Shown: positions 296-51,011 of the stretch, piece after piece
How positions within the stretch are numbered: the stretch's first letter is position 1
Layout: every line of letters begins with the position of its first letter
Assembly: GCA_004348925.1 (NCBI GenBank)
Contig: RCMX01000006.1
Coordinates: 666,919 to 730,918 of the forward strand
Direction: 5' to 3'
Source of the DNA: Actinomycetota bacterium
GTDB taxonomy: Bacteria > Actinomycetota > Coriobacteriia > Anaerosomatales > Anaerosomataceae
DNA length: 64,000 bases
Notes under the pieces: model-generated
What the model was told of the DNA's origin: nothing
Database searches by the model: none
Seen by the model: only the letters and a program-made list of their open reading frames with translations
Position numbers and translations under genes: made by a program

Positions 296-1294
296 GTGAG
301 AACCACCCGCATCCGTCTGCTCGCTTTGCTGCTCGTCGTCGCGCTCGCTGCGAGCGCGCTTGTGGGCTGCACGAAGAAGGGCGAGCCGGCCGCTTCGGAC
401 GGCACGTCGATCAGCGCCACGCCGGTGCCGATCAAGATCGGCACGCTTCCCACCGAGGATTCGCTGCCGTTGTGGGTCGCCGAGCAGCAGGGGCTCTTCG
501 AGAAGGCCGGTCTCTCGGTAGAGATCCTCATCTTCCAGGCGGCCCAGGAGCGCGACGCCGCGTTCGCATCGGGCGCGATCGACGCCTACATGGGCGACAT
601 CATCGCATCGGCAGCGCTTGAGGCCGGCGGGTCGCCCGTCTCGATTGCGACTGTCATGCTTGGCGCCACCGCGAAGGAGGGCCGCTTCGGCATCGTCGCG
701 AAGCCGGGCTCGAAGGCCAAGACGCTCGCCGATCTTGCCGGCGTTCCGATTGCCACGTCCTCGGCCACGATCCAGGAGTACGTCCTCGACGGCCTGATGG
801 CCGCCGCCAACGTGCCCGCGGACAAGGTGAAGAAGGAGATCGTCGCCAAGGTGCCGGTTCGGTTCGAGCTGCTCATGAACGGCAAGCTCGAGGCGGCATC
901 ACTACCCGAGCCGTTCCTCACGCTCGCCGTCTCGCAGGGCGCCGTGCTTGTTGCTGATGACACCGCGGGCGCGAATCTCACGCAGACGGTGCTGGGTGTC
1001 TCGGACAAGTTTATGGCGACGCCCGGCGGCATGCTTACCGTCAAAGAGCTTCTCGGCGTGTGGGACGAGTCGGTGGATGTCATCAACGCCGAACCGAACT
1101 CGTTCCGTGCACTGCTCGTCGACAAAGCGCGCCTGCCCGAGCCGCTCAAGGACACGTATCCGGTGAACGCGTACCCCAAGGCCGCGCCTCCGACGCAGGC
1201 CGAGGTCGATGCGGTGCTGACCTGGATGAAGTCCAAGGAGCTCCTCAAGGGCGACGTCGCCTACGCTGATCTCGTGCAGGCCCTGCCCGAGTAA
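296..1294 (+). CDS. ABC transporter substrate-binding lipoprotein, NMT1/THI5 (nitrate/sulfonate/bicarbonate) family
   Basis: GTG start preceded by GAGGAGG. Signal peptide with lipobox LVGC. NMT1-like SBP fold sequence. Followed directly by ATPase and permease genes. Confidence 0.8.
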   Translation: MRTTRIRLLALLLVVALAASALVGCTKKGEPAASDGTSISATPVPIKIGTLPTEDSLPLWVAEQQGLFEKAGLSVEILIFQAAQERDAAFASGAIDAYMGDIIASAALEAGGSPVSIATVMLGATAKEGRFGIVAKPGSKAKTLADLAGVPIATSSATIQEYVLDGLMAAANVPADKVKKEIVAKVPVRFELLMNGKLEAASLPEPFLTLAVSQGAVLVADDTAGANLTQTVLGVSDKFMATPGGMLTVKELLGVWDESVDVINAEPNSFRALLVDKARLPEPLKDTYPVNAYPKAAPPTQAEVDAVLTWMKSKELLKGDVAYADLVQALPE

Positions 1295-1303
1295 GGACAC
1301 TTC

Positions 1304-2092
1304 GTGGCAGCCGTATCGGTTCGAGAGCTCGCCGTCACCTATAGCGGTGTGGGGCGCGATGTCCCTGCGCTCCTTGGGATGAACCTCGAGGTCGGTGATG
1401 GCGAGCCGATCGCCATCATCGGGCCTTCGGGCTGCGGCAAGTCAACGCTGCTGCTTGCGCTTGCGGGGTTGCTGCCCGCTGACGCGGGTGAGGTGCTCAT
1501 CGGCGGGGAGGCGGTCACGCGTCCGCGCAGGCGAACCGCGCTGATCCTCCAGGACTTCGGCCTCCTGCCATGGAAGACGGTCGCGCACAACGCCGCGCTT
1601 GGGCTTGAGGTGCGTGGGGTGGAAGCCGGTGCCCGCCGCAAGGTCGTCGACGAGGCGCTCGAGCGTCTCGGCCTGGCCGAGTTCGCCGAGGCGTACCCCG
1701 GCGAGCTCTCGGGCGGCATGCGCCAGCGGCTCGCACTGGCGCGCGCGCTTGCCCTCGACGCGGACCTGCTGCTCATGGACGAGCCCCTCTCGGCGCTTGA
1801 CGCGCTCACGCGGGAAGACCTGCAGAACCTGCTGCTCGGCATCTGGCAGCAGCGCGGGCACACCGCGGTGCTCGTGACGCACTCCATTGAGGAAGCGGTC
1901 TTCCTCGGCAGGCGGGTCGTCGTTATGTCGCCGCGTCCGGGTCGCGTTGCGTCGATCGTCGACAACCCGGAGATGGGCGAGGCGGGCTACCGGGAGACGC
2001 CGGCGTTCCTGGAGCGCTGCGTCGAGCTGCGGCGTCTGCTTGCCGCCGAGGGCGCCTTCGCGGACCAGGCGTTGGCGGAGGGTGTCCGATGA
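1304..2092 (+). CDS. ABC transporter ATP-binding protein (SsuB/TauB-like)
   Basis: Walker A GPSGCGKST, signature LSGGMRQR and Walker B LLLMDEP. Confidence 0.9.
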   Translation: MAAVSVRELAVTYSGVGRDVPALLGMNLEVGDGEPIAIIGPSGCGKSTLLLALAGLLPADAGEVLIGGEAVTRPRRRTALILQDFGLLPWKTVAHNAALGLEVRGVEAGARRKVVDEALERLGLAEFAEAYPGELSGGMRQRLALARALALDADLLLMDEPLSALDALTREDLQNLLLGIWQQRGHTAVLVTHSIEEAVFLGRRVVVMSPRPGRVASIVDNPEMGEAGYRETPAFLERCVELRRLLAAEGAFADQALAEGVR

Positions 2093-2844
2093 ACGCGTGG
2101 CTGCGTCGCATCGGCGGCTACGCGATCGCCAGCGCCGCGTTGCTGGCGGGTTGGCAGTTGCTCTCGATGGCGATCGGCTCCCAGGCGCTTCCGGGTCCGG
2201 TTCCCGCGCTCTCCGATTTCGGGCGGCTGCTCTTCTCCGACCTGCTGCCGCACGCCGGGATCAGCGCATGGCGTGTCGTGGCGTCGATGACAATCGGCGC
2301 AGCCGTTGCGACGCCGCTTGGTCTCGCAATCGGGCGTAGTCCTCGGGCAGACGCGGTGTTCGCACCGATGATCTTCCTCACGTACCCCGTGCCGAAGGTC
2401 GTCTTCCTGCCGGTCCTTCTTGTGCTGCTCGGCATCGGAAACCTTCCGAAGATCGCGCTCATCACGCTCATCGTCTTCTTCCAGATACTCGTGACGGCGC
2501 GCGACGCGGCGCGCGGCATTCCCGCCTCGGCGGTGCTCTCGGTCCGCTCACTCGGAGCGACGCGCTGGCAGGTCTTCCGTCACGTGGTGGTTCCGGCCGC
2601 GCTGCCCGACATCTTCACGGCGCTGCGCATCTCCACGGGCACGGCCATCGCCGTGCTGTTCTTCTCGGAGACGGTGGCGGGGAGCGAGGGGCTCGGCTAC
2701 TACATCATCGACGCCTGGAGCCGCATCGCGTACAGCGAGATGTTCGCCGGTATCATCGGCATGGCGATGCTCGGCGTGGTGCTCTACGAGCTGCTTGAAC
2801 TCGCCGAGGCACGCGTGTGCCGTTGGACGCGTGTCGAGCGGTAG
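2089..2844 (+). CDS. ABC transporter permease (SsuC/TauC-like)
   Basis: ATGA overlap with the upstream ATPase. Polytopic membrane protein with an EAA-like loop. Confidence 0.85.
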   Translation: MNAWLRRIGGYAIASAALLAGWQLLSMAIGSQALPGPVPALSDFGRLLFSDLLPHAGISAWRVVASMTIGAAVATPLGLAIGRSPRADAVFAPMIFLTYPVPKVVFLPVLLVLLGIGNLPKIALITLIVFFQILVTARDAARGIPASAVLSVRSLGATRWQVFRHVVVPAALPDIFTALRISTGTAIAVLFFSETVAGSEGLGYYIIDAWSRIAYSEMFAGIIGMAMLGVVLYELLELAEARVCRWTRVER

Positions 2845-2846
2845 CC

Positions 2847-3938
2847 CTACGGCAGCTGCTGAACCGGGTGACAGTTCAGGCAGAGATCATCGTAGAAAGC
2901 GGTGGAGGTCGCCTCAACGAGCATGCGGTAGTTCGTCGACTCGTGCGGGAAGTTCTGGAACCGCGGGTTGTCGGTGAGCGAGCGTCCGTCCGCGATGCCG
3001 ACCATGTAGGGTTTCACCGTCCCGGCGTTCCCGGTCGCGCTGAGCGAGCCGACGTCCCGGGCGTCCTCATGACACTGCTGGCAGATAGGCGCGTGGCCAG
3101 TCTGCTCGGCAGTGCGCGGATACGGCATCAGATAGCCCCCGTTGTTAGCGGCAAGCGGTCCGAGCGTCGTCGCGGTGGCGTTCACGCCTGCGTTCAGCCG
3201 TGCGACGTTGTTGTAGATGAACGGTGTCGCGGTCGTCCATTTGGATTCTGCCGGGTGGTTATGGGCCTCGCTCAGGCCGGGGCCTCGACCCTTGTGACAG
3301 GCAAGGCACCAATCGGAGCCGTAGCTTGCTGTTGAGGTGGTCGCCCCCGTTGGGCTGCGCTTCAGCAGGCGGTTCTGTGTCTGCAGGGTCATGATGCCCC
3401 AGCGATAGGCCCTCTGGCGTTCGCCAAGGAATGGATTGACGCAGTCGTTCCCGTGTGGCGAGTGGCAGTCGCTACATGTCAGTTTTCCGCCGGGACCCGC
3501 GAAGGAGATCGTAGCGCTACCGCCATCTGCAGCATTGCCTCCGGGAACAGCCGAGGTAGTCTCGATGCGGTGTCCGGAAGCTACGGCCAGTCCACGTCCG
3601 CTGATGGCGCCGTAGACGCCCTCCCCGATCGTTGCCGTGCCGTCGTGGCACGTCATGCAGGTTGCATGGATGGTCTCGCCGGGGAGCAGTTTGAACCCAC
3701 TCGGGGCGTCATGGAGGGTGTGGCACGTCTTGCATGCGTTGGTGGTGGTGGCGTAGCCACCATGCGGACCCCACCGGGTGCCGGTGTTACCCATAGCGCC
3801 GGGGTAGTGGCACTCCATGCATGTCGCCCAGTCGCCAGCGGTCGACGTGGTTTCGTCGAAAGCGAAGGCCGGGGATGCAAACGCTAAGATCGCGGTGGCG
3901 ATGAGTAGCAGACACGTACGCAGGAATCGAACCCCCAT
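2847..3938 (-). CDS. secreted heptaheme c-type cytochrome (paralogue A)
   Basis: Seven CxxCH motifs (CMECH, CKTCH, CMTCH, CSDCH, CLACH, CQQCH, CLNCH). Start moved to the internal ATG at 3938, which is preceded by GGGAGGGG and followed by a signal peptide ending AFAFDE. Conserved C-terminal NPRFQNFPHE...LCLNCHPV block shared with the paralogues. Confidence 0.85.
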   Translation of the reverse strand: MGVRFLRTCLLLIATAILAFASPAFAFDETTSTAGDWATCMECHYPGAMGNTGTRWGPHGGYATTTNACKTCHTLHDAPSGFKLLPGETIHATCMTCHDGTATIGEGVYGAISGRGLAVASGHRIETTSAVPGGNAADGGSATISFAGPGGKLTCSDCHSPHGNDCVNPFLGERQRAYRWGIMTLQTQNRLLKRSPTGATTSTASYGSDWCLACHKGRGPGLSEAHNHPAESKWTTATPFIYNNVARLNAGVNATATTLGPLAANNGGYLMPYPRTAEQTGHAPICQQCHEDARDVGSLSATGNAGTVKPYMVGIADGRSLTDNPRFQNFPHESTNYRMLVEATSTAFYDDLCLNCHPVQQLP

Positions 3939-4071
3939 GGATAAGCCCCTCCCGCTGTCCATGACGTCGTTGTTCGGTAGTTTCGCATAACGCGGCCAGG
4001 AATAGAACACGAGGCAGCCAAATGGCCCTGGTGTGATCCCGGAAGACGCGATGAGCGAGAAGCGGCGGCCG

Positions 4072-5181
4072 CTAGGGCAGTGACACGACCGGGTGGCAGT
4101 TCAGGCAGAGGTCGTCGTAGTACGCGGTCGAAGTCGCCTCGACGAGCATGCGATAGTTCTGCGTCTCGTGCGGGAAGTTCTGAAACCGGGGATTGTCCCC
4201 GTCGGTCCAGCCATCCGGCGTGGTGATGGTGTACGGCGCGGCGTCCCCCTGGGTGCCGTCCGCCGACAAGCTACCCACCATCCTCGAGTCCTCGTGGCAC
4301 TGCTGGCAGATTGGCGCATGTCCGGTCTGCTGCGCTGTACGAGGCCAGGGCATCAGGTAACCGCGGTTGCTTCCCGCAAGCGTGCCGAGAACGGTAACGC
4401 CGGTCAGGGCATCACCGTTGAGCTTGGCGACGTTCGTGTAGGTGAAGGGGGTCGCAGTCGTGGCTTTGGAATCTGCCGGATGGTTATGCGCCGCAGACAG
4501 TCCCGAGCTCCGACCCTTGTGACAGCCGAGACACCAGTCCGAGCCGTACTCTGCTGTGGGCGTCGTCGAGTTCCCGGGCGATCGCTTCAACAGCTTGCTT
4601 GAGGTGGTAACGCCGATGATTCCCCAGGTTGCCGACCGCTGACGTTCGCCGGCGTAGGCATTCACCACGTCTGCGCCGTGCGGGCTGTGGCATGAGGTGC
4701 ATGTTAGTGTTCCGCCGGGACCACCGAACGCCACGGGAAGCGAACCGCCGCTGTTCTCGTCGCCGCCCGGGACCACGTTGATCGCCTCCACGCTGTGCGA
4801 GGAGCCGACGCTGCGTCCACGGGCGGCGATCGCGCCGTACACGCCTCCACCGGCCGTGCCATCATGGCAGGTCATGCAGGTGGCTTTAGTGGTCGCACCG
4901 GGAAGCAGCATCACGCTCGATGCCGGCGCCTGATGAACGGAGTGGCACTCCCCGCACTTCGATGTGGTGATCGTATACCCGCCATGAACGCCGGCCTTGG
5001 GATCGTCGAATACCGAGCCTGGCCACGGATCATGGCACCCGCCGCAATTCGCTTCATCCATGCTGGGTGGAAGCGTCGAGGTGGTCTCATCGAACGCCAA
5101 AACAACGCTCGGGACCATAACGATCAGGGTCGCGAGCGCCGCGATGGCTGCGATTCGTATGACGGTTGAGCGCATGCTCAC
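4072..5181 (-). CDS. secreted heptaheme c-type cytochrome (paralogue B, tandem copy)
   Basis: Seven CxxCH motifs (CGGCH, CGECH, CMTCH, CTSCH, CLGCH, CQQCH, CLNCH). Signal peptide ...VVLAFDETTST. Collinear conserved blocks with paralogue A. Confidence 0.85.
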   Translation of the reverse strand: MSMRSTVIRIAAIAALATLIVMVPSVVLAFDETTSTLPPSMDEANCGGCHDPWPGSVFDDPKAGVHGGYTITTSKCGECHSVHQAPASSVMLLPGATTKATCMTCHDGTAGGGVYGAIAARGRSVGSSHSVEAINVVPGGDENSGGSLPVAFGGPGGTLTCTSCHSPHGADVVNAYAGERQRSATWGIIGVTTSSKLLKRSPGNSTTPTAEYGSDWCLGCHKGRSSGLSAAHNHPADSKATTATPFTYTNVAKLNGDALTGVTVLGTLAGSNRGYLMPWPRTAQQTGHAPICQQCHEDSRMVGSLSADGTQGDAAPYTITTPDGWTDGDNPRFQNFPHETQNYRMLVEATSTAYYDDLCLNCHPVVSLP

Positions 5182-5261
5182 CTCAGAGGACTTTGATTCA
5201 ACACCAATAGTACCCCGCGCACGCGTTGTATGCTAGCGCCGTGCCATGTCGCGCCCTCGCT

Positions 5262-5633
5262 TCAGCTGGCAAGGGTCCGCTCGACGACTTCGCGGAGCGC
5301 TCTGGGATCGAACGGTTTCGTCACGTACTCGTCGCAGCCGAGATCCGCGCCGTGCTTGAGGTCCGTGTTCTGAGCGGCCGTTGTGAGCATGATGACCTTC
5401 ACACCCGCGGTTTCAGGCCGTTTGCGCAAGAATCGCAGCACCTCGAAACCGTCCAGCTTGGGCATCGTCACGTCGAGAAGTACGAGGTCGGGGTGCTCGG
5501 CCATCGCGACCTCGAGCGCCTTCTCGCCGTCAACGGCCTGGAGAATCTCGTGCCCGAGCGAGCGCAATGCAGCGCTTACCAACAGTCGTATCTGCTGGTT
5601 GTCGTCGGCCACCAGTATCTTGCATGTCGCCAC
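5262..5633 (-). CDS. single-domain response regulator (CheY-like receiver)
   Basis: REC domain with DD pair, phospho-acceptor Asp in LVLLDVTMP and conserved Lys in YVTKPF. Confidence 0.85.
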   Translation of the reverse strand: MATCKILVADDNQQIRLLVSAALRSLGHEILQAVDGEKALEVAMAEHPDLVLLDVTMPKLDGFEVLRFLRKRPETAGVKVIMLTTAAQNTDLKHGADLGCDEYVTKPFDPRALREVVERTLAS

Positions 5634-5666: not shown

Positions 5667-6119
5667 TCAGTCGCGATCTCGATGCATGATGTTCACGATG
5701 GTGTGCAGCTTCGCTTCTCGCTTTGCGCGCTCACGCGCGACCTGCTCGCGCTTCGACGGGTCGAGCATCGCTTCGATGTGATCGGCAACATCGGACGGCT
5801 TGAACGGCTTCGGGATGTAGTCGACGAAGTCGTCCTTCATCTGCTCGACCTGCTCCTCGAAGGTGCCAGCCGCCGAGAGGAACAGAATCGGGATCTCCTT
5901 GAACGCCGGCCTGCGGCGGAGCTCCTCGCGTACCTGGTGCCCCGTCATCTTCGGCATCATGACGTCGAGTACGATGAGGGATGGCTTCTCTGTCTCTGCC
6001 ATCGCAAGCGCTTCGATGCCGTTGTCTGCAGTCACGATGGTGTAGCCGCGATTCGTGAGCGCTACCGTGAGAAGCTTCTGGATCGACGGCTCATCGTCGA
6101 CTACGAGGATCTTCTTCAT
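5667..6119 (-). CDS. single-domain response regulator (receiver) with short C-terminal coiled/charged tail
   Basis: REC motifs VVDDEP, LIVLDVMMP, YIPKPF. C-terminal 30 aa are lysine/arginine/glutamate-rich. Confidence 0.85.
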   Translation of the reverse strand: MKKILVVDDEPSIQKLLTVALTNRGYTIVTADNGIEALAMAETEKPSLIVLDVMMPKMTGHQVREELRRRPAFKEIPILFLSAAGTFEEQVEQMKDDFVDYIPKPFKPSDVADHIEAMLDPSKREQVARERAKREAKLHTIVNIMHRDRD

Positions 6120-6134: not shown

Positions 6135-6500
6135 CTACTCGCCCAGGATCTCCGACACCCGTCGGACCAGGTCCTTGGGCGTGAACGGCTTACAGATGTA
6201 TTCGCTTGCGCCGCACGTCAAACCTTCTGCAATCTCACGCTGCTGCGATTTGGCAGACAACATCACGATGGGGATGTGCGCGGTCTTGGGATTCTCGCAG
6301 ATCTTCTTTGCGGCATCGTACCCGTTCATGACAGGCATCATAACGTCGAGCAGGATCAGGTCGGGCTGTTCTGACTCGGCAAGCTCTGCGGCTGTTGCGC
6401 CGTCGGCAGCGGTCACGATCTCCCAGCCGTGATTGCCAAGCGTGAACGACACGAGTTTGAGGATGTGCGGCTCGTCATCCGCGACCAGTATCTTGCTCAC
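6135..6500 (-). CDS. single-domain response regulator (CheY-like receiver)
   Basis: REC motifs VADDEP, LILLDVMMP, YICKPF. 4-bp overlap with the upstream kinase gene. Confidence 0.85.
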   Translation of the reverse strand: MSKILVADDEPHILKLVSFTLGNHGWEIVTAADGATAAELAESEQPDLILLDVMMPVMNGYDAAKKICENPKTAHIPIVMLSAKSQQREIAEGLTCGASEYICKPFTPKDLVRRVSEILGE

Positions 6501-8668
6501 GAGTCCTCCAGCATGCTCTCGAGCAGGGCCTCGACGCGCCGTGCCAGTTCCTCTGCCGAGAACGGCTTATCCACCTTCTGTTGCGCAAGCCCGAGGATGT
6601 CGATGCGAGAGCGATCGATTTGATGTGCGGTCATCACGACGATGGGGATGTCCTTGGTCGCCGGATCCGTCTTCACCTTCTCTATGACCTGATAGCCGTC
6701 CATGACGGGCATCTGCAGATCGAGGAGGATCAGGTCCGGGTGTCTCTTCCTGAGCGCGGCCATAGCCTCGGCGCCGTCGTAGGCCGCCGCTACGGAGAAG
6801 CCCTTCGACTTCAGGTTTCGGCAGAGCAGGTCGACGATGTTGCGGTCGTCATCGACAACCAGGATCACGGGCGCCGCGACGCTGCCGACGAGATCGTCGA
6901 TGATCGTCGTGAGCCGTCGCTTGTCGATCGGCTTCTCAAGGTAGTCTGCCGCGCCAAGACGACACGAGCGACCCTCATCGCAGACGATCGAGAGCACCAG
7001 CACCGGGATCTCGCTCGTCTCCGGTGTGTCTTTGAGCTTCTGGAGAAGATCGAAACCGTCGCCATCGTCCAACATCACATCGAGTGTGATCACGCGCGGA
7101 CGGACCTCGATCGCCTTCTCGAGCGCCTCGGTGGCGTTGTGCGCCTTGACGACGTCGTACCCCTGCCTGACGAGGTAGGTCTCCACGAGGTTCGCGATCT
7201 CGGGGTCGCGGTCGACCACGAGCACCATGCCGCCTGCCGCGGTGGGGCCTTCTACTCCGGGCGTGCGAACGAGGTCCTTCGATGCGATCGGCAGCGAGAA
7301 CCAGAATGTGGAGCCTTTGCCGGCTGTGCTCTTCACGCCGACCTTCCCGCCGAGCAGCTCGATGATGCTCTTGCAGATGGACAGGCCGAGGCCGGTGCCG
7401 CCGATCTCGCGAGTGAGCGAGGAGTCGACGCGATAGAACTTCGTGAACAGCTTTGCCTGGTCTTCCTTGGCGATGCCGATTCCCTGGTCGGTGATCGCGA
7501 CCACGACCATATCGCCTTCTTGCTTCGCCTTGACGGTGACGCTTCCGCCCTCGGGCGAGTACTTGATCGCATTGCTGATGAAGTTCATCAGCACCTGACC
7601 GACCCGGTCTCGGTCTCCGGCGGCTTTCGGCAAGTCGTGCGGTGCCTTCGGGAGGAGTTTGTGTCCGCTCTGGTCGGACACTGCCTGGAATGTATCGACG
7701 GCGCCAGCGATCAGATCGCACATGTCGAGGGGCTGGATTTTGAGGTGGATCCGGCCGGACTCGATGCGCGAGATGTCGAGCATGTCGTTGATGAGCTCGA
7801 CCAGCCGGTCGGAGTTCTGCTTCACGATCGACAGGAACTCGCGCTGTATCTCGTTGATCTCGCCGGCTTCGCCGTCGAGGATCAGGTCGATGTAGCCCTT
7901 GATCGAGGTGAGCGGCGTCCTGAGTTCGTGCGACACGGTCGAGACGAATTCGTTCTTCATCTGGCCCACTTCGCGCTCCGCAGTCACGTCGTGAAGCGTT
8001 GCCACGTAGCCGAGATACCCGCCCTTGTCGTCGAGCACAGGGTCGGTGCGTACGTCCATGATGCGATGCTCTGGTTCCTCCAGCCGGACTTCTCGGACCT
8101 GAGAACCATCGATCGCAGGCGCGAAGCTGTCCTCGGGCACCATCGACAGCATCTCCCAGAGCGGGGTCCGCTTTCCGATGAGCTTGGCGGGCTTCAGGCC
8201 CGCAAGCATGCTTGCGGCCGGGTTGATGTAGGTGATCATCTCTTCGGCGTCGAAGACGATGAGGCCGTCACCGGTGCTTGCCAGGATCGCCTCGGCGCGT
8301 TTGCGGTACGCCTCGAGTGCCGTGTCGTCGCGCAGTGTGACGACGGCGGCCCGACGCCCGGAACAGTCGTACGGTGCGACCGTGGCTGCGACGACGCGGT
8401 CGCCAAGCAGGAGTCGAACGCCGTGGGGCTCCTTGCGCGACCTCGGGCGCAGCAGGCGTTCGATCATCGTCTCGATCTTCGGTTGCTTGAGCGTCGTGTA
8501 CAGCTTGCCGTGGACTTTCGACCGGGGTATGCCGAGCAGCTCCTCGGCGGTCTCGTTGAAGACGCGGATATCGCCGTCGGGTCCGACGGCAATCAAGCCT
8601 TCGCTCGTCGTAGCCATGAGCGCGCGGATGTGCAGGAAGGAACGACGTTCGTCAGCCTTCTGCGGCAA
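6497..8668 (-). CDS. hybrid sensor histidine kinase (PAS-PAS-HisKA-HATPase-REC-REC)
   Basis: H-box HELRTPLTSIKGYIDL. G-box [13 protein letters not shown]. Two C-terminal receiver domains (VLVVDRD..., ILVVDDD... LILLDLQMP). Confidence 0.85.
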   Translation of the reverse strand: MPQKADERRSFLHIRALMATTSEGLIAVGPDGDIRVFNETAEELLGIPRSKVHGKLYTTLKQPKIETMIERLLRPRSRKEPHGVRLLLGDRVVAATVAPYDCSGRRAAVVTLRDDTALEAYRKRAEAILASTGDGLIVFDAEEMITYINPAASMLAGLKPAKLIGKRTPLWEMLSMVPEDSFAPAIDGSQVREVRLEEPEHRIMDVRTDPVLDDKGGYLGYVATLHDVTAEREVGQMKNEFVSTVSHELRTPLTSIKGYIDLILDGEAGEINEIQREFLSIVKQNSDRLVELINDMLDISRIESGRIHLKIQPLDMCDLIAGAVDTFQAVSDQSGHKLLPKAPHDLPKAAGDRDRVGQVLMNFISNAIKYSPEGGSVTVKAKQEGDMVVVAITDQGIGIAKEDQAKLFTKFYRVDSSLTREIGGTGLGLSICKSIIELLGGKVGVKSTAGKGSTFWFSLPIASKDLVRTPGVEGPTAAGGMVLVVDRDPEIANLVETYLVRQGYDVVKAHNATEALEKAIEVRPRVITLDVMLDDGDGFDLLQKLKDTPETSEIPVLVLSIVCDEGRSCRLGAADYLEKPIDKRRLTTIIDDLVGSVAAPVILVVDDDRNIVDLLCRNLKSKGFSVAAAYDGAEAMAALRKRHPDLILLDLQMPVMDGYQVIEKVKTDPATKDIPIVVMTAHQIDRSRIDILGLAQQKVDKPFSAEELARRVEALLESMLEDS

Positions 8669-10921: not shown

Positions 10922-12757
10922 TTACGGCGCCTTGCCCACCTTGAGGGTGACGGTGGTGCCCTTGGTCACCTTGGTAGTGGGGAGCGGATCCTGGTTGATG
11001 ACGATGCCCACGTCCGGACTGACCTCATAGACCACGTTGACCTTGAGGCCGAGCCCCTCGAGCTCCGCGCGAGCGTCCGCCTCGGTCATGCTGGTGTAGT
11101 CGGTCAGCGTGACGGTGCCGGGGCCCTTGGAGACCACGATCGTTATCGTCGAACCCGCATCTACCGACACATCGGCATCGGGGTTCTGGCTCACGACGGT
11201 GCCGGTCGGCACGGTATCGCTGAAGTCCTGCGTGACCTTCACCTTGAAGCCGGCAGCCTTGATCGCCGCCTCGGCGTCGGCCTGCTTCTTGCCGACGGTA
11301 TCCGGCACTTTGGCAAGCTCGGTTCCCTTGGAGATCACAAGCGTCACCTTGGAGCCCTTGGGAACCTTGGCTCCGCTCGTGGGTTCGCTCGAGATGACCT
11401 GCCCCTCCGGCACGTCTTTGCTGAATTCGCGCACAACGGGCACGGAGACCACCAGGCCGACACCCTCGATGGTGGTGACAGCATCGGCCTCGGTCATGCC
11501 GATCACCACAGGAACCTCGACCTGCTCGATACCCGCCGAGATGACCAGGTTGATAGCGGATCCCTTCTTCACCCGACCGCCCGCGACGGGATCTTGCCGC
11601 ATGACCTGACCCAGCTCGTATTCCTCGCTGTTCTCAGTCGTCACAGTGCCAACGATGAGTCCCTGCGAGGTGATGGTCGTGCTGGCTTCCTGCTCGGTCA
11701 TACCGAGGACGGTCGGCACGGCGATTGTGCCGCCGCCGAATGCGCCGAGAGCTGCCGCGACGCCGATGCCGAGCGCGAGCAGGACAACCGCCACGAGTAC
11801 CCACACCCACGGCTCCACCCGACGTTGCGGAACCGGACGAAGCTCGGGTGCGGATGCGATGCGCTGACGCTCAGCACGCTCCACGGCGGGCATGACGGAG
11901 GTCTGGTCGGCGTACGTCTGACGGGGGGCGGCTCCAACGGATTCGCCGGTCACGACACGCTTCAGGTCGTCGCGCATCTCCGAGGCGGACTGATAGCGTT
12001 CCGCGGGATTCTTGCGCATCGCCTTCATGATGACGGCTTCAAGCGAGGCCGGTACCGAGGGGCGGATCTGTCGGGGAGGGACGGGCTGCTCGTTGACCTG
12101 CTTGAGCGCCACGGCAACGGGTGTGTCGGCATCGAACGGCAGTCGCCCGGTGGCGAGTTCGTAGAGCGTGACGCCGAGCGAGTAAAGGTCCGAGGCGGGT
12201 CCGAGCGCACGGCCCTGTGCCTGCTCCGGGCTGATGTATTGCGCCGTGCCGAGAACCGAGCCGGTCTGCGTCATCGTCGTGTTCCCGGCGCGTGCGATGC
12301 CGAAGTCCATGACCTTCACGGTGCCGTCGGGCGTGATGACGATGTTGTGCGGTTTGATATCGCGGTGGATGATGTCGTATCCATGCGCCACAGCGAGCGC
12401 AGCGCATGCCTGCATGCCGTACTCGGCCACTTTGACGGGGTCCATCGCGCCGCGCTGCTCGACAAGCGACTTGAGGTCGGTACCGTTCACGTACTCCATG
12501 ACGATGTAGTAGGTCTCGTCATCACGGCCCCAGTCGTAGATGTTCACAATGCTCGGGTGCGAGAGGTTGGCAGCAGCCTGGGCCTCCTGGCGGAATCGCG
12601 CCACGAAGTTGGGCTCAGAGGCGTAGCGGGGGTGCAAGACTTTCACGGCGACCGTGCGTCCCAGCACTTCGTCGACCGCCTTATAGACCTCGGCCATGCC
12701 ACCGGAGCCGATCTTCTCGATGGCTCTGTACCGGCGTCCGAATACCATTTCTTCCAC
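10922..12757 (-). CDS. pknB: Ser/Thr protein kinase with four extracellular PASTA domains
   Basis: Kinase subdomains (GSGGMAEVY, VAVK, HRDIKPHN, DFG). One TM segment. Four PASTA repeats. Last gene of the fhaA...pknB cluster. Confidence 0.9.
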   Translation of the reverse strand: MEEMVFGRRYRAIEKIGSGGMAEVYKAVDEVLGRTVAVKVLHPRYASEPNFVARFRQEAQAAANLSHPSIVNIYDWGRDDETYYIVMEYVNGTDLKSLVEQRGAMDPVKVAEYGMQACAALAVAHGYDIIHRDIKPHNIVITPDGTVKVMDFGIARAGNTTMTQTGSVLGTAQYISPEQAQGRALGPASDLYSLGVTLYELATGRLPFDADTPVAVALKQVNEQPVPPRQIRPSVPASLEAVIMKAMRKNPAERYQSASEMRDDLKRVVTGESVGAAPRQTYADQTSVMPAVERAERQRIASAPELRPVPQRRVEPWVWVLVAVVLLALGIGVAAALGAFGGGTIAVPTVLGMTEQEASTTITSQGLIVGTVTTENSEEYELGQVMRQDPVAGGRVKKGSAINLVISAGIEQVEVPVVIGMTEADAVTTIEGVGLVVSVPVVREFSKDVPEGQVISSEPTSGAKVPKGSKVTLVISKGTELAKVPDTVGKKQADAEAAIKAAGFKVKVTQDFSDTVPTGTVVSQNPDADVSVDAGSTITIVVSKGPGTVTLTDYTSMTEADARAELEGLGLKVNVVYEVSPDVGIVINQDPLPTTKVTKGTTVTLKVGKAP

Positions 12758-12828
12758 TGCGAACTCCCCATCTGCGTTCTACAGCTGCTACCTGCAGATA
12801 CTTGTGGACATTCTACCCTATGCGGTTC

Positions 12829-15576
12829 TCACTTCGTGCGAGCCAGAGCGGCCTCAAGCACCAGCTTCGCCGCGGGCGCCGCGACCTGGCCGCCAACACC
12901 CGCGTTCTCGAGGATGATCGCGATCGCCACCCGCGGGTTCTCTGTGGGCGCGAAAGCGATGAACCAGGCGTGCGTGTCCACGCTCTTGCCCGCCTCGGCG
13001 GTACCTGTCTTGCCGGCAACGGTGACGCCTTTGATCGAGGCTCGTGTGCCCGAACCGCTCTTCACGACCGCGACCATCATGTCCCGCACGGTGGCGGCGG
13101 TCGTTGGGTCGGTTGCTGTGGTCCACGTGCGTGGTTTCGTCACCGAGAGGACAGCCCCGCCTCGGTCGGTGATCGAGTCGACGAGATACGGGCGCATCAC
13201 GACGCCGTTGTTGCCGATGCCTGCGGCGACGAGAGCCATCTGAAGCGCGGTGACCTGTGGACCCGCGGGGCTAGCATGCTCGCCGACCGGTTGGCCGACG
13301 CCAGCCCATGCGGTCTCCCAGCGGGTCATCTCGGCGGGGTCGGGCATGAGTGAGGCCTTCGCGGGGATCTCGAGTGAGGGCGCATCGCCGAAGCCGAACC
13401 GCTCCGTCTGGGCTACGAGCCGTTCGGCGCCGAGCTGGTCGGCCAGCTGCGCGTACACGGTGTTGATGCTGCTCGCGGTCGCCTTCTCGAGGGTGATGGT
13501 GCCGTAGCCGCTGCCGCCGTAGTTGGTGACGGGCGCGCCACCGATCTCGATCCTCGCGGGCCCGGGGTACGTGCTCTTCGGCGTTGCGGTGCCGGCGCCG
13601 ATGGCGCCGGTGAGCGTCACGACCTTGAAGGTCGATCCCGGCGGGTAGAGGCTGACGGCCGCGCGATCCAGGAGCGGCGAGGCGGCTGCTGTTGAGAGCG
13701 AATCCCACGTGCCGTCCACTTTCGCGGGGTCGTACGTGGGACTCGAGGCCATCGCGAGGACCGCGCCCGTCATCGGGTCGATCACGACGCACGCGCCACG
13801 CGTCTTGCCGAGCGCCTTCTGCGCGGCGGCCTGGATCTCGCTGTCGATCGTGAGGCGCACGTCGTTGCCGGGGACCTGCGCGCCGGCGAGCGAGTTCACG
13901 AGGTCGGTGACGCTCGCGAACGTTCGCTTGCCCGTGAGCGCGTCGTTCATGGCGGCCTCGATGCCGGCTCGGCCGTAGCGCGGGCTGTAGTACCCGACGA
14001 TATGTGCGCCGAGCGACCCTTTCGGGTACGTCCGCTTGAACTCGCTGCCCGAGGGGACCGACTCGGCGATGACGACGGCGTCCCGCGTGAGGATCGCGCC
14101 ACGCTCCTGCTGGAGCTCCTCGGCGAGTCCGCGGGTGTTCGCCGGGTTAGCCGCGAGGGCAGCCGCGTCGAAGACCTGCAGGTACGTGAGATTCGCGACC
14201 ACAGCGCCGAGCAGCAGCGTGATGACCACGGCAACCGCGGTGAGCCGTCGGCCGATAGCGACGCGGCCGAGCACGCCGGTTGCGCCGCTCGTGAGCATCT
14301 CGGCCTCGCGACCGGTGGCGGCATCGCCCGCACGCATGAGCACGCCGAGCAGCATGAAGTTGGCCAGCACCGAGGAGCCGCCGTAGCTCACGAACGGAAG
14401 CGTGATGCCGGTGAGCGGGATGAGCCGCGTCACGCCGCCGAGGATGACGAACGCCTGAAGTCCGAACGTGGCGACAAGGCCGACCGCCGTGAACGCGGCC
14501 ATGTCGGAGCGCGCGCGGGTCCCTGTGGCGAGGCCCCGCAAGCAGAACACGAGGAACGCGACGACGATGGCGGCACCGCCGAGCAGGCCGAGCTCCTCGC
14601 CGATCGCGGCGAAGATGAAGTCGGTCTGCACGAACGGGATACGCATCGGGAGACCGCGTCCGGGCCCGACGCCGAGCATGCCGCCAGCGCCGAAGGCGAA
14701 GAGCGACTGCACGAGCTGATAGCCTCGGCCGGCTGCGTCGGCAAACGGGTCGAGCCATATTGCGACGCGCGTCTGCACGTGGTCGAACATCGCGTACGCC
14801 GCTGAAGCGCCCACGGCGAACAGCCCGATTCCGACGACCACGTATCCCGCACGGCCTGTCGCGGCGTAGATCATGATCAGGAAGACGCCGAAGAACAGCA
14901 GACTCGAGCCCAGGTCCTTCTCGGCAACGAGGACGACGAGTGAGAGCGCCCACATGAAGAGCAGCGGGCCGAGATGCTTGAGCGGCGGCAGCCATACTCC
15001 CAGGATCCGCTTGGTCGATACCGAGAGGACCTCGCGGTTCTCGGCAAGGTATGCGGCGAGGAAGAGCACGATGAGGACTTTCGCGACCTCGGCGGGCTGG
15101 AACGACATGCCCGCGAAGCGCAGCCAGAGCTTCGCGCCGTTCACCTCGACGCCGACGATCGCGGGCAGCACGAGCAAACCCACGCCGGCGAGGGCGATGG
15201 TGTACTTGTAGCGCGCGAGGCGCTCGAGCGAAGGCACCACCGCGAGCGTGCCGACGAGCGCTAGCACGCCCGCGAACATCCACAGCACCTGGCTCGCTCC
15301 CGACGCGCTGTCAAGCCGCGTGATGAACGCGACACCGGTGCCGGAGAGCAGGAACGTCACCGGCAGGAGCACGGGGTCCGCGCCCGGCGCGAAGAAGCGG
15401 GCGGCGACGTGTGCGCCAAGGAACGCCGCAAGCAGGCCGAGCGGAACCGCGAGGTCCATCCAGCCGAGCGTGCTGCGAGCGGCGCCATGCACCAGCGCGA
15501 AGAGGAGCGCCACAGCGGGCGCTGCCGCCAGGAGCAAGAAGAGCTCGGTGTCGCGTCGCGAGCGCATCGCGATCAC
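12829..15576 (-). CDS. SEDS glycosyltransferase (RodA/FtsW) fused in-frame to class B penicillin-binding protein transpeptidase
   Basis: 915-aa continuous ORF. N-terminal ~420 aa polytopic FtsW/RodA. Then a linker, a TM segment and a PBP dimerisation plus transpeptidase domain (SxxK-type). Confidence 0.8.
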   Translation of the reverse strand: MIAMRSRRDTELFLLLAAAPAVALLFALVHGAARSTLGWMDLAVPLGLLAAFLGAHVAARFFAPGADPVLLPVTFLLSGTGVAFITRLDSASGASQVLWMFAGVLALVGTLAVVPSLERLARYKYTIALAGVGLLVLPAIVGVEVNGAKLWLRFAGMSFQPAEVAKVLIVLFLAAYLAENREVLSVSTKRILGVWLPPLKHLGPLLFMWALSLVVLVAEKDLGSSLLFFGVFLIMIYAATGRAGYVVVGIGLFAVGASAAYAMFDHVQTRVAIWLDPFADAAGRGYQLVQSLFAFGAGGMLGVGPGRGLPMRIPFVQTDFIFAAIGEELGLLGGAAIVVAFLVFCLRGLATGTRARSDMAAFTAVGLVATFGLQAFVILGGVTRLIPLTGITLPFVSYGGSSVLANFMLLGVLMRAGDAATGREAEMLTSGATGVLGRVAIGRRLTAVAVVITLLLGAVVANLTYLQVFDAAALAANPANTRGLAEELQQERGAILTRDAVVIAESVPSGSEFKRTYPKGSLGAHIVGYYSPRYGRAGIEAAMNDALTGKRTFASVTDLVNSLAGAQVPGNDVRLTIDSEIQAAAQKALGKTRGACVVIDPMTGAVLAMASSPTYDPAKVDGTWDSLSTAAASPLLDRAAVSLYPPGSTFKVVTLTGAIGAGTATPKSTYPGPARIEIGGAPVTNYGGSGYGTITLEKATASSINTVYAQLADQLGAERLVAQTERFGFGDAPSLEIPAKASLMPDPAEMTRWETAWAGVGQPVGEHASPAGPQVTALQMALVAAGIGNNGVVMRPYLVDSITDRGGAVLSVTKPRTWTTATDPTTAATVRDMMVAVVKSGSGTRASIKGVTVAGKTGTAEAGKSVDTHAWFIAFAPTENPRVAIAIILENAGVGGQVAAPAAKLVLEAALARTK

Positions 15577-16697: not shown

Positions 16698-17113
16698 GCC
16701 CGCACGACCTTGAGCCGGTTGGTGCCGAGTTCGATCATGTCGCCCTCGCGCACGCGAACAGGCCTGGTGAGCGGCTGTCCGTTCACGATGGTGCCGTTGG
16801 TCGAATGAAGATCCTCGGCGATCGCTCCGTCCCCGTCGGGAACGACCTTCGCGTGAATCGAGGAGACGAAGTCGTCTGCGATCACGAGGTCCGCGTCGGG
16901 CGAGCGGCCGATGACGATCGGGCCGGAGAGCTGCAGCGTGACACCGCGCAGTTCGCGCGGACCCTCCGCAACGGTCAGCGCGAGTCCCTTCGCCTTGGTG
17001 CGCACCCCGCCTGAAGCGACCATGCCAACGCCCGTCCGGACGGCCGCGAAGAGGAACAGGTACAGCAGGCCGATGAAGAGGATTCTACCGAACAAGAGGA
17101 TGACGTCTGCCAT
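16694..17113 (-). CDS. fhaB: FHA-domain membrane protein
   Basis: N-terminal TM segment plus a C-terminal FHA domain (GRSPDADLVI...STNGT). Confidence 0.8.
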   Translation of the reverse strand: MADVILLFGRILFIGLLYLFLFAAVRTGVGMVASGGVRTKAKGLALTVAEGPRELRGVTLQLSGPIVIGRSPDADLVIADDFVSSIHAKVVPDGDGAIAEDLHSTNGTIVNGQPLTRPVRVREGDMIELGTNRLKVVRA

Positions 17114-17116
17114 GGG

Positions 17117-17863: not shown

Positions 17864-17924
17864 CGGTTAAGACTATACCAGCCGTGCGACACGGGACAGG
17901 AGCGGCGTCACCGCACCGTGGCTT

Positions 17925-43761: not shown

Positions 43762-43908
43762 AAGGACTCCTCGGCGTCGGCGGAGTGATACCGATATGAT
43801 ACTACCCACCGCGAACCTCCAGCCATCCGCCCGTCTGACCGTTCTTCTCGGCTATAATCCCAGCTAGCACCGACCGCGCCCTGAACGATCTCCGACCGGA
43901 GGCCTACC

Positions 43909-48161: not shown

Positions 48162-49283
48162 ATGCTGAGACGACTGCCCGCCGCTTTGATGGTTACCGCC
48201 TTCGTGTTCTTCCTCTTCGGCGCGGCATCGACCGCGTTCGCGTTCAACGACGCAGGTTGGACGGGCGGAGTCACCTGCAGCAGCTGCCACCATCCCGGTG
48301 GTATGGCCATCGCCAACTACGGTCCGCACGGAGCGTATTCGACTGCGACACGGGCGTGCAAGACGTGCCATACCCTTCATGATGCTCCCGGTGGTTTGAA
48401 GCTTCTGCCTGGCGACACCGTCAAGGCCACATGCGAGGTGTGCCACGACGGCACCGGTGGCGGTGGCGTCTACGGCGCGATCGCCGCGCGCGGTCTGACG
48501 GTCGGCGGCAAGCACGGTATCGAGACCACATCGGTCGTCCCCGGCGGCAGCGCATCCGACGGCGGCAGCGCGACGATGGCCTTCGGAGGTGCGAACTCGA
48601 CGTTAACGTGTAGTGACTGTCACTCACCTCACGGGAGCGACTGCGTCGACCCCTTCCTCGGCGAGCGGCAGCGCGATGGGGTCGCAATTGGTCTCTTCGA
48701 TGTTTCAACTTCGAATCGACTGCTCAAGCGCCACCCAGGTGGAGCGACCACGGAGACGGTGCAGTACGGTTCTGACTGGTGCCTCTCGTGCCACCAGGGC
48801 CGCGCGTCGGGTCTCTCGGCGGTGCACAACCATCCCGCGGAATCGGCGCTCACGACCGCCAATCCCGCGTACTACCAGGCAGCTGCGATTCTCGGTACGG
48901 CTCCGTATCCCACAGCAACGACGGTCATCGGGTCTATGGGAGTCAACACGAAGAACGCGGGGTACAACCGCGCCTACCTCTGGCCGTGGCCCAGGACCGG
49001 TGCCCAAGCGGGCCGACTCCCCATCTGCCAGCAGTGCCACGAGGACACCCGGAACGTCGGGAGCCTGACGGCCGACGGCACGCAGGGCGTTCCGAGCGAG
49101 ACCACCATCACGGCCCAGTCGGTCGGTGGGCCGTCGGGCAACGGAATCAACCCGACTGACAACCCACGGTTCCAGAACTTCCCGCACGAGACGCAGGGGT
49201 TCCGGTTGCTTGTCGAGGCGGACACCACCTACTTCGCTGATGACCTTTGCATGAACTGTCACCCGGTGGTGGCGCTGCCGTAG
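48162..49283 (+). CDS. secreted heptaheme c-type cytochrome (paralogue C)
   Basis: Seven CxxCH motifs (CSSCH, CKTCH, CEVCH, CSDCH, CLSCH, CQQCH, CMNCH). Signal peptide ...AFAFND. Same conserved blocks as paralogues A and B. Confidence 0.85.
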   Translation: MLRRLPAALMVTAFVFFLFGAASTAFAFNDAGWTGGVTCSSCHHPGGMAIANYGPHGAYSTATRACKTCHTLHDAPGGLKLLPGDTVKATCEVCHDGTGGGGVYGAIAARGLTVGGKHGIETTSVVPGGSASDGGSATMAFGGANSTLTCSDCHSPHGSDCVDPFLGERQRDGVAIGLFDVSTSNRLLKRHPGGATTETVQYGSDWCLSCHQGRASGLSAVHNHPAESALTTANPAYYQAAAILGTAPYPTATTVIGSMGVNTKNAGYNRAYLWPWPRTGAQAGRLPICQQCHEDTRNVGSLTADGTQGVPSETTITAQSVGGPSGNGINPTDNPRFQNFPHETQGFRLLVEADTTYFADDLCMNCHPVVALP

Positions 49284-49298: not shown

Positions 49299-51011
49299 CT
49301 ACTTCTTGATCTCGGCGAAGTGCGCCTGGTAGCGACCGCCGTTCCCCTTCAGGAACGTGTCGTATGGCGGCACTTCGTAGACGCGCAGACGGTTGTCGAG
49401 GAAGTCGCTGAAGATGAGGATCTTCCCGTCGTCGGAGACGTCGAGCGCGGTGCACTGGTTTCCGCCGATGACGGCGTCGAGCGGTTTCCCGCTACCCGCA
49501 TCGAACACCAGGATCGAGCCCCACTCGGGGCCGGGGATGTAGTACGACTTCGGGTTGTTCTCGCCCCGACAGCTCACGAAGAGCATCTTCTTGTCGGGCG
49601 ACAGGTCGATCGTGTTCGGCTTCTCGTCCACGTCGAGGAACTTCGTGGTCGCGCCGGTCTTCATATCGTGCACCCAGATCTTGTCGGCCGACATGTCCGA
49701 GATGAACAGCCGCCCGGTGCCTTCATCGGCCACGATGTGTCGCAGCGCGCCGCCGCTCTTGAAGATCGTGGTCATCTTCCCGGTGGCAAGGTCGATCTTG
49801 TCGAGGAAGCCGGAGTCGAAGCCGGCCACGTAGAGCGTCCTCCCGTCGGCCGTGGCGTACATGCCGCGCGGCGTGTTGGAGACGCCGATGCGCTTCACCA
49901 GCTTGCCGGTTGTGAGGTCGATGATCGATACGTCGTCACCCGACCAGTTGCTGGCATAGAGCGTCTTCTCGTCGGGGGAGAGTTGCACCCACTTCGTCCA
50001 GGCGCTGCCGCTCTTGAACTCGCGCAGGACCTTCCGCGTCCTCACGTCGATCTCGAAGCACTCGGCGGTCTCCATCTGGGACGTATAGGCGAGTGTCCCG
50101 GCCTTGTTGAAGATGACCTCCACCGCGCCGTACTTGCCGATGTCGACCTCGCCGATCTTCTTGCCGCTTCGCGGCTCGAAGATCTCGATCGACGGCGGGC
50201 CGTTCAGGATGCTCGTCCACGCCTCGCTCCCGTCGGGGGTGACCGAGACGCCCTTGGGCGCGCCTTTGGTGGTGATCGTCCCGAGGCCGTGCAGGACCTG
50301 ACCCTCGGGGTCCATGAAGAAGTCGAGCTCGAGCGGCTCGTCCAGGAAGACCTCGCGTGTGAACGTGTTGTACCCGGCCATCGCGACCGTGAGCGTGCAC
50401 TTCCCGGCCGGAGCCTGCTGCGAGAACGGCGCGGTGCCGGTGAGCTTCTCGCCCGAGGCGGTGGTGAGCGTGCAGGTCGCGCCTTCGGGATGCGTGATGA
50501 TCGATACCCCGAACGGCTGTGGCTTGAGGTCGTAGGTGAGCTTCGCCCTGCGCCCGCGCTTGAGCTCCACGTTTGCCGAGACCGGCTCGAAGCCCTTGCG
50601 GCTTACATTCACCGTGTAAGCGCCGGGTTCGAGGTCGGCGACGGTAAGCGTGCCGGATGCGGTCTGTGAACCGTTGAAGACGATGCTCGCATCGGCGGGC
50701 GTGGCGGTGATGGCGACCGACGCGGGACGCGTGAGCATCCATGCGGTCACTGCGATCGCGATGGCGAGCACCCCCACGACGAGCGCGACGAACCCGAACG
50801 ACACCGTGCTGCGACGACGGCGCCCGGCGAAGATCTGCGCGTCGTGCCTGGTGCGCGGCAGGGGCGTCCTGTGTCCGCCTCGGCCGCGCTTGCGTCCCGG
50901 GCCGCCCGAGATGCCTTCAAGCCGCCGCGACGACGCAGGAGGCGCTGCGTGGCGCGCTCGCGACGAACGCGAGCGCGACGACGGATCCCGCAGGCTTCCG
51001 TACTCGCTCAA
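49299..51011 (-). CDS. membrane-anchored PEGA-domain / YVTN beta-propeller repeat protein
   Basis: Arg-rich cytoplasmic tail, TM segment, two PEGA-like modules (PGAYTVNVSRKGFEP, PEGATCTL), then YVTN-type repeats (TLYASNWSGDDVSIIDL...). Confidence 0.65.
   Translation of the reverse strand: MSEYGSLRDPSSRSRSSRARHAAPPASSRRLEGISGGPGRKRGRGGHRTPLPRTRHDAQIFAGRRRRSTVSFGFVALVVGVLAIAIAVTAWMLTRPASVAITATPADASIVFNGSQTASGTLTVADLEPGAYTVNVSRKGFEPVSANVELKRGRRAKLTYDLKPQPFGVSIITHPEGATCTLTTASGEKLTGTAPFSQQAPAGKCTLTVAMAGYNTFTREVFLDEPLELDFFMDPEGQVLHGLGTITTKGAPKGVSVTPDGSEAWTSILNGPPSIEIFEPRSGKKIGEVDIGKYGAVEVIFNKAGTLAYTSQMETAECFEIDVRTRKVLREFKSGSAWTKWVQLSPDEKTLYASNWSGDDVSIIDLTTGKLVKRIGVSNTPRGMYATADGRTLYVAGFDSGFLDKIDLATGKMTTIFKSGGALRHIVADEGTGRLFISDMSADKIWVHDMKTGATTKFLDVDEKPNTIDLSPDKKMLFVSCRGENNPKSYYIPGPEWGSILVFDAGSGKPLDAVIGGNQCTALDVSDDGKILIFSDFLDNRLRVYEVPPYDTFLKGNGGRYQAHFAEIKK

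Follow-up and report, generated by a model that had tools for sequence, protein, structure and literature searches.

Exported heptahaem cytochromes of Anaerosomatales as probable electron carriers outside the cytoplasmic membrane

The window analyzed in this work is a 64,000-nucleotide stretch of DNA from a member of the Anaerosomatales (Actinomycetota; contig RCMX01000006.1, positions 666,919 to 730,918 of the forward strand), in which the genes cytA, cytB and cytC encode three paralogous c-type cytochromes with seven haem-binding CxxCH motifs each. We consider it likely that these proteins are exported, unanchored cytochromes that take part in extracellular electron transfer, as relays on the outer side of the membrane of a cell that has only one. 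Their family is an uncharacterised, lineage-typical variant within a known kind of system. Electron transfer across the wall of Gram-positive bacteria has been outlined for a few Firmicutes, chiefly Thermincola and Carboxydothermus, and to our knowledge Actinomycetota still lack an equivalent account.

In the sampled loci of the Anaerosomatales/OPB41 lineage, this family is the most multiplied type of cytochrome. The lineage is widespread in the subsurface and includes two hosts of family members, the obligate Fe(III) reducer Parvivirga hydrogeniphila (PMC9686372) and Coriobacteriaceae sp. EMTCatB1, which predominates on an electromethanogenic biocathode (PMC7943316); of the few genes that cathodic current turns on, one already belongs to the family. 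The wall-crossing step of this lineage thus has a concrete candidate in the family, which has a cultured host in P. hydrogeniphila and consists of proteins small enough to express and image. As a monomeric relay it would be an ordinary new family on a known theme, and as a polymerising protein it would be considerably more important. Our literature search found no paper that singles out the family or ties cytochromes of Coriobacteriia to OmcS.

Seven-haem cytochromes and their family

The products of cytA, cytB and cytC (Table 1) each contain exactly seven CxxCH motifs, whose positions are aligned across the three proteins, together with 15-16 histidines and no CxxxCH or CxxCK variants; their pairwise identities are 61% (CytA/CytB), 56-57% (CytA/CytC) and 52-55% (CytB/CytC). 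Seven CxxCH motifs in about 340 residues, kept across hundreds of homologues, cannot be a product of chance, and the combination of several such motifs with a signal peptide in each protein places all three in the general class of multihaem c-type cytochromes. The signal peptides end in cleavage sites of the AxA type, between AFA and F in CytA and CytC and between VLA and F in CytB, so that mature CytA starts with FDETTST. Neither a second hydrophobic segment (maximum KD19 <=1.0 past residue 35) nor a lipobox, an LPxTG-like motif or a hydrophobic C-terminus was found in any of the three, which therefore resemble neither sortase substrates nor lipoproteins. The original prediction, made from the letters of the window, had described three true paralogues with seven aligned motifs, an export signal and no anchor, and these features were all recovered, as was every one of the conserved blocks that it listed: G(P/V)HGGY, CHSPHG, CQQCHED, NPRFQNFPHE and LC(L/M)NCHPV. 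Its three open reading frames (ORFs) exist where it had placed them, except that it began cytB at GTG 5181; the most likely start is ATG 5175, which is preceded by GAGGTG and is also the database start.

Table 1. Coordinates of the cytochrome genes, their neighbours and the conserved N-terminal motif (window positions unless residues are given)
Feature	Position	Strand	Description
cytA	2847..3938	-	363 amino acids; exported heptahaem c-type cytochrome; second gene of the tandem pair
cytB	4072..5175	-	367 amino acids; exported heptahaem c-type cytochrome; 369 amino acids from GTG 5181
cytC	48162..49283	+	373 amino acids; heptahaem; dispersed third paralogue
Mature N-terminal motif	CytA residues 27-36; CytB residues 28-37 (367-residue numbering); CytC from residue 28
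cytB upstream intergenic region	5176..5261	-	between the third receiver gene and cytB
Three single-domain response regulators (REC)	5262-5633, 5667-6119, 6135-6500	-	Pfam Response_reg only
Hybrid histidine kinase	6497..8668	-	PAS-PAS-HisKA-HATPase-REC-REC (Pfam); soluble
ATP-binding cassette (ABC) transporter	296..2844	+	NMT1-type binding protein, ATPase, permease (Pfam); convergent with cytA
PEGA and beta-propeller protein	49299..51011	-	membrane-anchored; Pfam PEGA and Lactonase/SGL/YNCE-type; convergent with cytC

The start codon of cytA is ATG 3938, with GGGAGGGG just before it. CytB is identical to a database protein (P0001, 'MAG: Actinobacteria bacterium D9V44_09030'), and CytC corresponds to another (P0063, D9V44_09265). 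No other ORF of the window, whose guanine-plus-cytosine (GC) content is 65%, contains two or more CxxCH motifs. A scan for terminators and promoters around cytB-cytA gave nothing beyond the shuffle expectation, and the RNA fold of the cytB-cytA intergenic region is ordinary (z = -0.83). Antisense ORFs of 169-185 amino acids overlap all three genes (2817-3335 and 4093-4602 on the plus strand, 48705-49262 on the minus strand). Such frames also cluster over family genes across the fetched loci and hence look conserved; they are typical high-GC artefacts, which could mislead ORF-based scans.

A profile search of 1.84 billion representatives yielded 147 clusters (50% identity) at E <= 1e-30 and 323 at E <= 1e-10, and the search with CytB returned at least 690 clusters at 90% identity, nearly all of the 120 listed being full-length. 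In GTDB species representatives (one genome per species), 250 loci were found. Nearly all of the best 80 loci come from metagenome-assembled genomes of Coriobacteriia/Actinomycetota, with four binned as 'Eubacteriales', and the best-matching loci belong almost entirely to Anaerosomatales/OPB41-like Coriobacteriia, in agreement with the actinobacterial host that had been proposed. Genomic neighbourhoods were compared for 85 loci from 43 genomes, in which the retained loci amount to 2-8 copies per genome. Members carry seven haems in 70 cases, eight in 25 and six in seven, and a distant branch of 290-330 residues has six haems and lacks the first one. Cultured members of the Anaerosomatales/OPB41-like lineage are known to encode 17-18 multihaem cytochromes each (PMC9686372). 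Given these copy numbers and inventories, the family is typical of its lineage rather than rare, and together with the number of clusters they do not support the earlier view that such proteins are uncommon in actinobacteria-like cells.

At least four other genomes have retained the cytB-cytA tandem as a pair of orthologues, with the cytA orthologue directly downstream. Identities are 60-86% (cytB) and 69-79% (cytA) between orthologues, against 54-61% between paralogues, and thus, with the pair retained in these genomes, the duplication is old and both copies have been maintained. Dosage and diversification had been offered as alternative reasons for the duplication; the age of the pairs and the orthologue and paralogue identities argue for the latter and not for a recent amplification of dosage.

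To assess haem ligation, conservation was read from 52 sequences of a family alignment (A1) with CytB as the query. All seven CxxCH motifs are invariant, as are the non-motif histidines H64, H81, H127, H166, H232 and H336, whereas H286 occurs in 90% or more of the sequences. These seven extra histidines provide a candidate sixth ligand for every haem, and all seven haems are probably bis-histidine (bis-His) coordinated and low-spin. Such haems, with no open catalytic site, would be suited to transferring electrons and not to catalysis. In the mature protein, which is about 340 residues long, there are about 48 residues per haem. Directly after the signal-peptidase site stands the motif (F/Y)(D/N)E(T/S)TST(I/V)P, which is strongly conserved family-wide; it might serve in glycosylation, in contacts between molecules or as a signal for processing. 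Its use as a general sorting signal was rejected, as it occurs in none of 4259 non-family ORFs.

A functional indication comes from published transcriptomics of EMTCatB1. The family member at one of its loci (L061) is followed by genes for a Ser/Thr kinase, FhaA, an FHA protein, PP2C and FtsW/penicillin-binding protein (PBP), and the published table lists 1c0641 as a kinase, 1c0640 and 1c0639 as FHA proteins, 1c0638 as a phosphatase and 1c0637 as ftsI (PMC7943316); as the gene orders match, this member corresponds to 1c0642. Its transcript level is 1171 transcripts per million (TPM) in closed circuit, 77 in open circuit and 114 with a methanogenesis inhibitor (PMC7943316), which is about a 15-fold induction, and the authors named the gene as a candidate for the direct uptake of electrons from the cathode (PMC7943316). 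A second member (L052) comes after glnA, glnR and polA and is by this order identified with 1d0256, for which the values are 869 TPM (closed), 284 (open) and 528 (inhibitor) (PMC7943316). In five Actinomycetota loci, moreover, a family cytochrome comes after Wzy_C/TPR, TPR and NHL-propeller proteins and before cytochromes with 10-19 haems. NHL propellers have been described beside extracellular cytochromes at omcS of Geobacter (GSU2505; PMC9070056), in Desulfovibrio ferrophilus (PMC9769857) and in Tenderia (bioRxiv 2022.05.06.490989), and omcE clusters include beta-propeller lipoproteins and TPR proteins (bioRxiv 2025.10.22.684050). These neighbourhoods and the transcriptomics of homologues (PMC7943316) agree with the original prediction of candidate extracytoplasmic electron carriers.

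According to the interpretation that we favour, the Sec pathway would export the apoprotein, signal peptidase I would cut after the AxA site, and a cytochrome c maturation system encoded outside the window would attach the seven haems. The mature protein would stay outside the cytoplasmic membrane of the single-membrane cell, where its closely spaced low-spin haems could relay electrons, in either direction, linking quinol-oxidising cytochromes of the membrane with larger cytochromes at the surface, with minerals or with electrodes. The paralogues would be old, diversified copies under different regulation, with cytB-cytA lying behind a kinase and three receivers.

Several points weigh against this interpretation. 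A cell-wall location and a role in extracellular electron transfer are what we infer for the three genes from their sequences, from neighbourhoods and from the expression of homologues, which are about 50% identical and belong to another genus, and the EMTCatB1 gene identifiers were mapped by gene order, not by sequence identity to the published ones. The haem ligation is deduced from conservation, the AlphaFold models containing no haems, and in the full-length CytB model (predicted local distance difference test, pLDDT, 78) the N-terminal 80 residues are poorly modelled, with the mature N-terminal motif at pLDDT < 50. The kinase next to cytB is cytoplasmic, and none of the three receivers has a DNA-binding domain. 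Finally, the three copies in the window sit outside any large-cytochrome cluster.

A few observations on the same genomes may be noted separately. The gene 1d0256 (L052, 7899-9017) encodes seven CxxCH motifs and was published as a 'hypothetical protein', so a search for multihaem cytochromes by name would miss it. The EMTCatB1 genes 1d0123-1d0127 encode a TPR protein, a hypothetical protein and three multihaem cytochromes (PMC7943316, Table S5), an order that mirrors the TPR protein, NHL propeller, family cytochrome and large cytochromes of the cluster L067; 1d0125, the most highly expressed cytochrome and among the highest expressed genes overall, with a TPM of about 10,900 on cathodes (PMC7943316), is a possible member of the family. 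A locus with 37% GC (L086, GCA_015711795.1, 1-15319) holds three repeats of an NHL propeller gene followed by a relative of roughly 290 residues from the distant six-haem branch, interleaved with three Wzy_C and TPR membrane proteins and one 15-haem cytochrome. The window contains the conserved division and signalling block (Ser/Thr kinase, FhaA, FHA, PP2C, FtsW/PBP and PASTA kinase) at 10922-19643 on the minus strand. In Parvivirga (L005) and EMTCatB1 (L061) a family cytochrome lies directly upstream of this block, and in the window that spot is occupied by a divergent CLC chloride channel gene (19739-21487).

Known cytochrome families and the question of polymerisation

Among Pfam domains, Paired_CXXCH_1 (PF09699) matches CytA, CytB and CytC with 55.7, 66.5 and 46.3 bits (gathering threshold 20.6), best at about residues 62-110, and the Pfam matches to Cytochrome_C7, Cytochrom_c3_2 and the MtrC/MtrF domain II/IV are near their thresholds. 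These generic modules cover the N-terminal region only (about residues 35-110, up to 244 for PF22113), less than one third of the protein; they are building blocks common to many unrelated cytochromes and are uninformative on the family-specific C-terminal part with two haems. None of the NCBIfam models for NrfB, NrfH, DmsE-MtrA, GSU2203 and OmcA/MtrC reached its cutoff (best scores 29-39 bits vs 134-325), the scores being 4-10 fold too low. A profile search of PDB sequences gave MtrA at E 7.7e-7, through generic paired motifs, OmcE at 1.5e-5 and OcwA at 4.7e-4. Neither OmcS nor OmcZ, PcECN or AvECN was among the 15 PDB chains matched at E <= 10. We take the entries for OmcZ, PcECN and AvECN to be present in the PDB copy that was searched. 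The model of the C-terminal 263 residues of CytB is confident (pLDDT 87, predicted template modelling score 0.85), and Foldseek found no neighbour for it in the PDB.

The closest functional analogue, judging from published descriptions, is CwcA (TherJR_1117/Tfer_0075), a cell-wall cytochrome of the metal reducer Thermincola. Like the proteins of the present family, CwcA is exported by a Gram-positive bacterium, is small, has several haems and lacks a membrane anchor. Its haems are all bis-His, as those of the family probably are, and it was proposed to carry electrons through the peptidoglycan, possibly by stacking as an OmcS-like polymer (PMC7911101, PMC12203936). The two differ in haem number and host (six haems in Firmicutes vs seven in Actinomycetota) and in the mature N-terminus, which is EEPYY in CwcA, as taken from primer sequences, and (F/Y)DETTST in the family; the polymer model of CwcA is itself based on 18% identity to OmcS. 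The nanowire cytochrome OmcS of Geobacter (6EF8) shares with the family a similar size, a paired-CxxCH start, an NHL propeller and a two-component system nearby, and the same order of motifs: CxxCHxxH, LLxGAT...CxxCH, CxxCHxPHG and S(D/E)WCxxCH...HP. It has six haems, whereas the family has seven, the extra one being N-terminal; the C-terminal third of the family (ICQQCHED, DNPRFQNFPHE, DDLCLNCHP..LP) has no counterpart in OmcS, and the OmcS host has two membranes rather than one. Outside the generic N-terminal domain, the best PDB sequence match is the nanowire cytochrome OmcE of Geobacter/Desulfuromonas (7TFS, 9YUQ), in which haems 1-2 (residues 35-122) align with family haems 4-5 (CxxCHSPH ... 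WCxxCHxGR...VHNHP, profile positions 140-231). OmcE has four haems in about 230 residues, of which only about 90 align, so that the match falls short of full-length OmcE, and omcE clusters include an outer-membrane beta-barrel, which would be unusable in a single-membrane cell.

These likenesses raise the question of whether the proteins form a head-to-tail haem wire, similar to OmcS and OmcE or to the one proposed for CwcA, that spans or exceeds the peptidoglycan. In such a wire, one of the conserved histidines would supply the missing ligand to a haem of the adjoining subunit, and assembly would be the task of NHL propellers and TPR/Wzy_C proteins. We regard this explanation as improbable, and slightly more doubtful still its fuller form, a wire subunit of a single-membrane actinobacterium joined through (F/Y)DETTST and a histidine and assembled by membrane-anchored NHL propellers with Wzy_C/TPR proteins. 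If true, the wire would be an OmcS/OmcE-like solution without an outer membrane, and would explain both the obligate Fe(III) respiration of Parvivirga and the cathodic electron uptake of EMTCatB1.

For the comparison of profiles, the OmcS sequence was checked against 6EF8, an OmcS-family profile was built, and signal peptides were left out. For the family and OmcS, hhalign gave a probability of 96.9% in local and 98.7% in global mode; the global alignment is colinear and pairs OmcS haems 1-6 with haems 2-7 of the family. Its score is 82.5 vs 36.5 +/- 6.2 in controls with only the CxxCH columns held, and the part after the paired domain alone scores 61.1 vs 35.7 +/- 8.2. The polymer explanation also draws on the lack of an anchor and the predicted bis-His coordination of all haems, on the profile match to OmcE (7tfs) at E 1.5e-5 over haems 4-5, and on OmcS being the top, non-significant, Foldseek match. 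In the six-haem branch, the mature chain begins with GPHGGY, the segment aligned with the OmcS N-terminus FHSGG. The invariant H81, in a CxxCHxxH context, aligns with OmcS His16, an inter-subunit ligand; the CxxCHxxH pattern is, however, common to paired-CxxCH domains in general. The conserved, family-specific mature N-terminus, modelled with low confidence, would suit an intermolecular contact, and the propeller and TPR neighbours resemble those of the omcS and omcE clusters (PMC9070056; bioRxiv 2025.10.22.684050). Neither H81 nor the N-terminus nor these neighbours is specific to polymerisation, and NHL propellers accompany cytochrome complexes that are not filaments as well.

What decides against a specific relationship to OmcS is a control in which twenty other multihaem cytochromes from the fetched loci were scored with the same family profile. 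OmcS, at 61.5, was surpassed by eight of these (68-108), so that the resemblance to OmcS is generic, at the level of shared modules. With the OmcS-family hidden Markov model no member of the family scores above 21 bits, and OmcS is missing from the PDB profile matches mentioned above. Only four of the six OmcS distal-histidine positions have aligned equivalents, the C-terminal third differs, and seven haems with seven distal histidines fit a monomer equally well. Specific homology to OmcS was therefore rejected, as control cytochromes score equally or higher and HMMER scores stay at or below 21 bits. By its sequence profiles the family belongs to neither the OmcS nor the OmcE family, and the six CxxCH motifs in OmcS spacing are not what is found here, where the proteins have seven motifs and their relatives mostly seven or eight.

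The kinase-receiver neighbourhood and roles as partner proteins

Upstream of cytB lie the genes for a hybrid histidine kinase and three receivers, the kinase gene overlapping the first receiver gene through its stop and start codons. A kinase, three receivers and a cytochrome directly downstream stand on one strand in 22 of the 43 genomes, and this synteny is kept in L006 and about 20 other loci. In 20 loci from other genomes, 61-158 nt separate the third receiver gene from the cytochrome gene. In seven relatives (L030, L025, L006, L024, L021, L023, L026) this gap contains palindromes just upstream of -10-like boxes, CRP/FNR-like TGTGA-N6-TCACA in L030 and L025 and TGGCAC-N5-GTGCCA in L024, and the gap of the window contains TGGCAC...TAGCAT, TACTAT and the ribosome-binding site GAGGTG. 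Together, the -10-like boxes and palindromes suggest a separately regulated promoter; the intergenic region in front of cytB likely holds its own promoter or operator, and the palindromes look like operator sites for a putative regulator. The phosphorelay may regulate cytB-cytA.

The reverse relation, in which the cytochrome is a redox-sensing input or dedicated partner of the adjacent phosphorelay rather than a bulk electron carrier, would accord with the persistence of the kinase-receivers-cytochrome order and its short gaps in about 20 diverged genomes, and with the two-component system GSU2506/2507 that adjoins omcS in Geobacter (PMC10599522). The kinase, however, has neither a transmembrane segment nor a signal peptide and therefore cannot directly touch an exported protein, and the kinase and receivers are missing from most family copies (39 of the 62 loci that extend far enough upstream). 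The separate promoter-like gap with its operator fits the cytochrome as a regulated target. Seven haems are also far above the number in known haem-c sensor domains. A sensor role for the phosphorelay is unlikely, and we assign it a very low probability.

An even smaller chance is left to the idea that the proteins donate electrons as subunits of one particular respiratory enzyme, as NrfB/NrfH (nitrite reductase) or DmsE/MtrA do, since the weak N-terminal matches to the NrfB, NrfH and DmsE models and MtrA as the best PDB sequence match are offset by scores of 29-39 bits vs curated cutoffs of 134-192, by matches that span the generic paired-CxxCH region only, by the lack of any reductase, porin or molybdopterin gene adjoining a window copy, and by the single-membrane host, to which a porin-cytochrome role is inapplicable. 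A dedicated reductase subunit is accordingly unlikely. A clear match to a known periplasmic respiratory family with a redox partner encoded nearby, which was named beforehand as a finding that would overturn the original prediction, did not appear: the curated cutoffs were not reached, and no reductase or other catalytic partner gene adjoins any of the three window genes.

Surroundings of cytA and cytC and other features of the window

The ABC transporter genes next to cytA are a conserved neighbour, recurring in 14-23 loci on the other strand downstream, and are probably functionally unrelated to the cytochromes. On the other side of the window, the PEGA-propeller protein is tentatively proposed as a possible accessory protein. 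A homologue of it (E 2e-76) adjoins another family member in L062, and its relation to the NHL propellers of the cytochrome clusters reaches only E 1.5e-5, after iteration. Across the 80 best loci the surroundings of cytC show no conservation. A conserved link of cytC to the PEGA-propeller or to the fusion protein encoded upstream was rejected, the propeller homologue in L062 being the sole recurrence.

This fusion protein (45633-48047, plus strand; 785-804 amino acids depending on the start) unites domains of glucose-6-phosphate dehydrogenase (G6PD_N, G6PD_C) and of 6-phosphogluconate dehydrogenase (NAD_binding_2, 6PGD), so that two consecutive enzymes of the pentose-phosphate pathway are joined in one ORF; a 62%-identical homologue is present in L032. 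Downstream of a citrate synthase gene, positions 60671-62011 (plus strand) encode a membrane protein with Ferric_reduct and NAD_binding_1 domains, similar to ferric reductases of the NOX/FRE type. Two gene pairs on the minus strand with overlapping stop and start codons, at 37766-38424 (141 and 78 amino acids) and 43121-43809 (137 and 92 amino acids), look, as judged by eye, like putative PIN-toxin/antitoxin modules.

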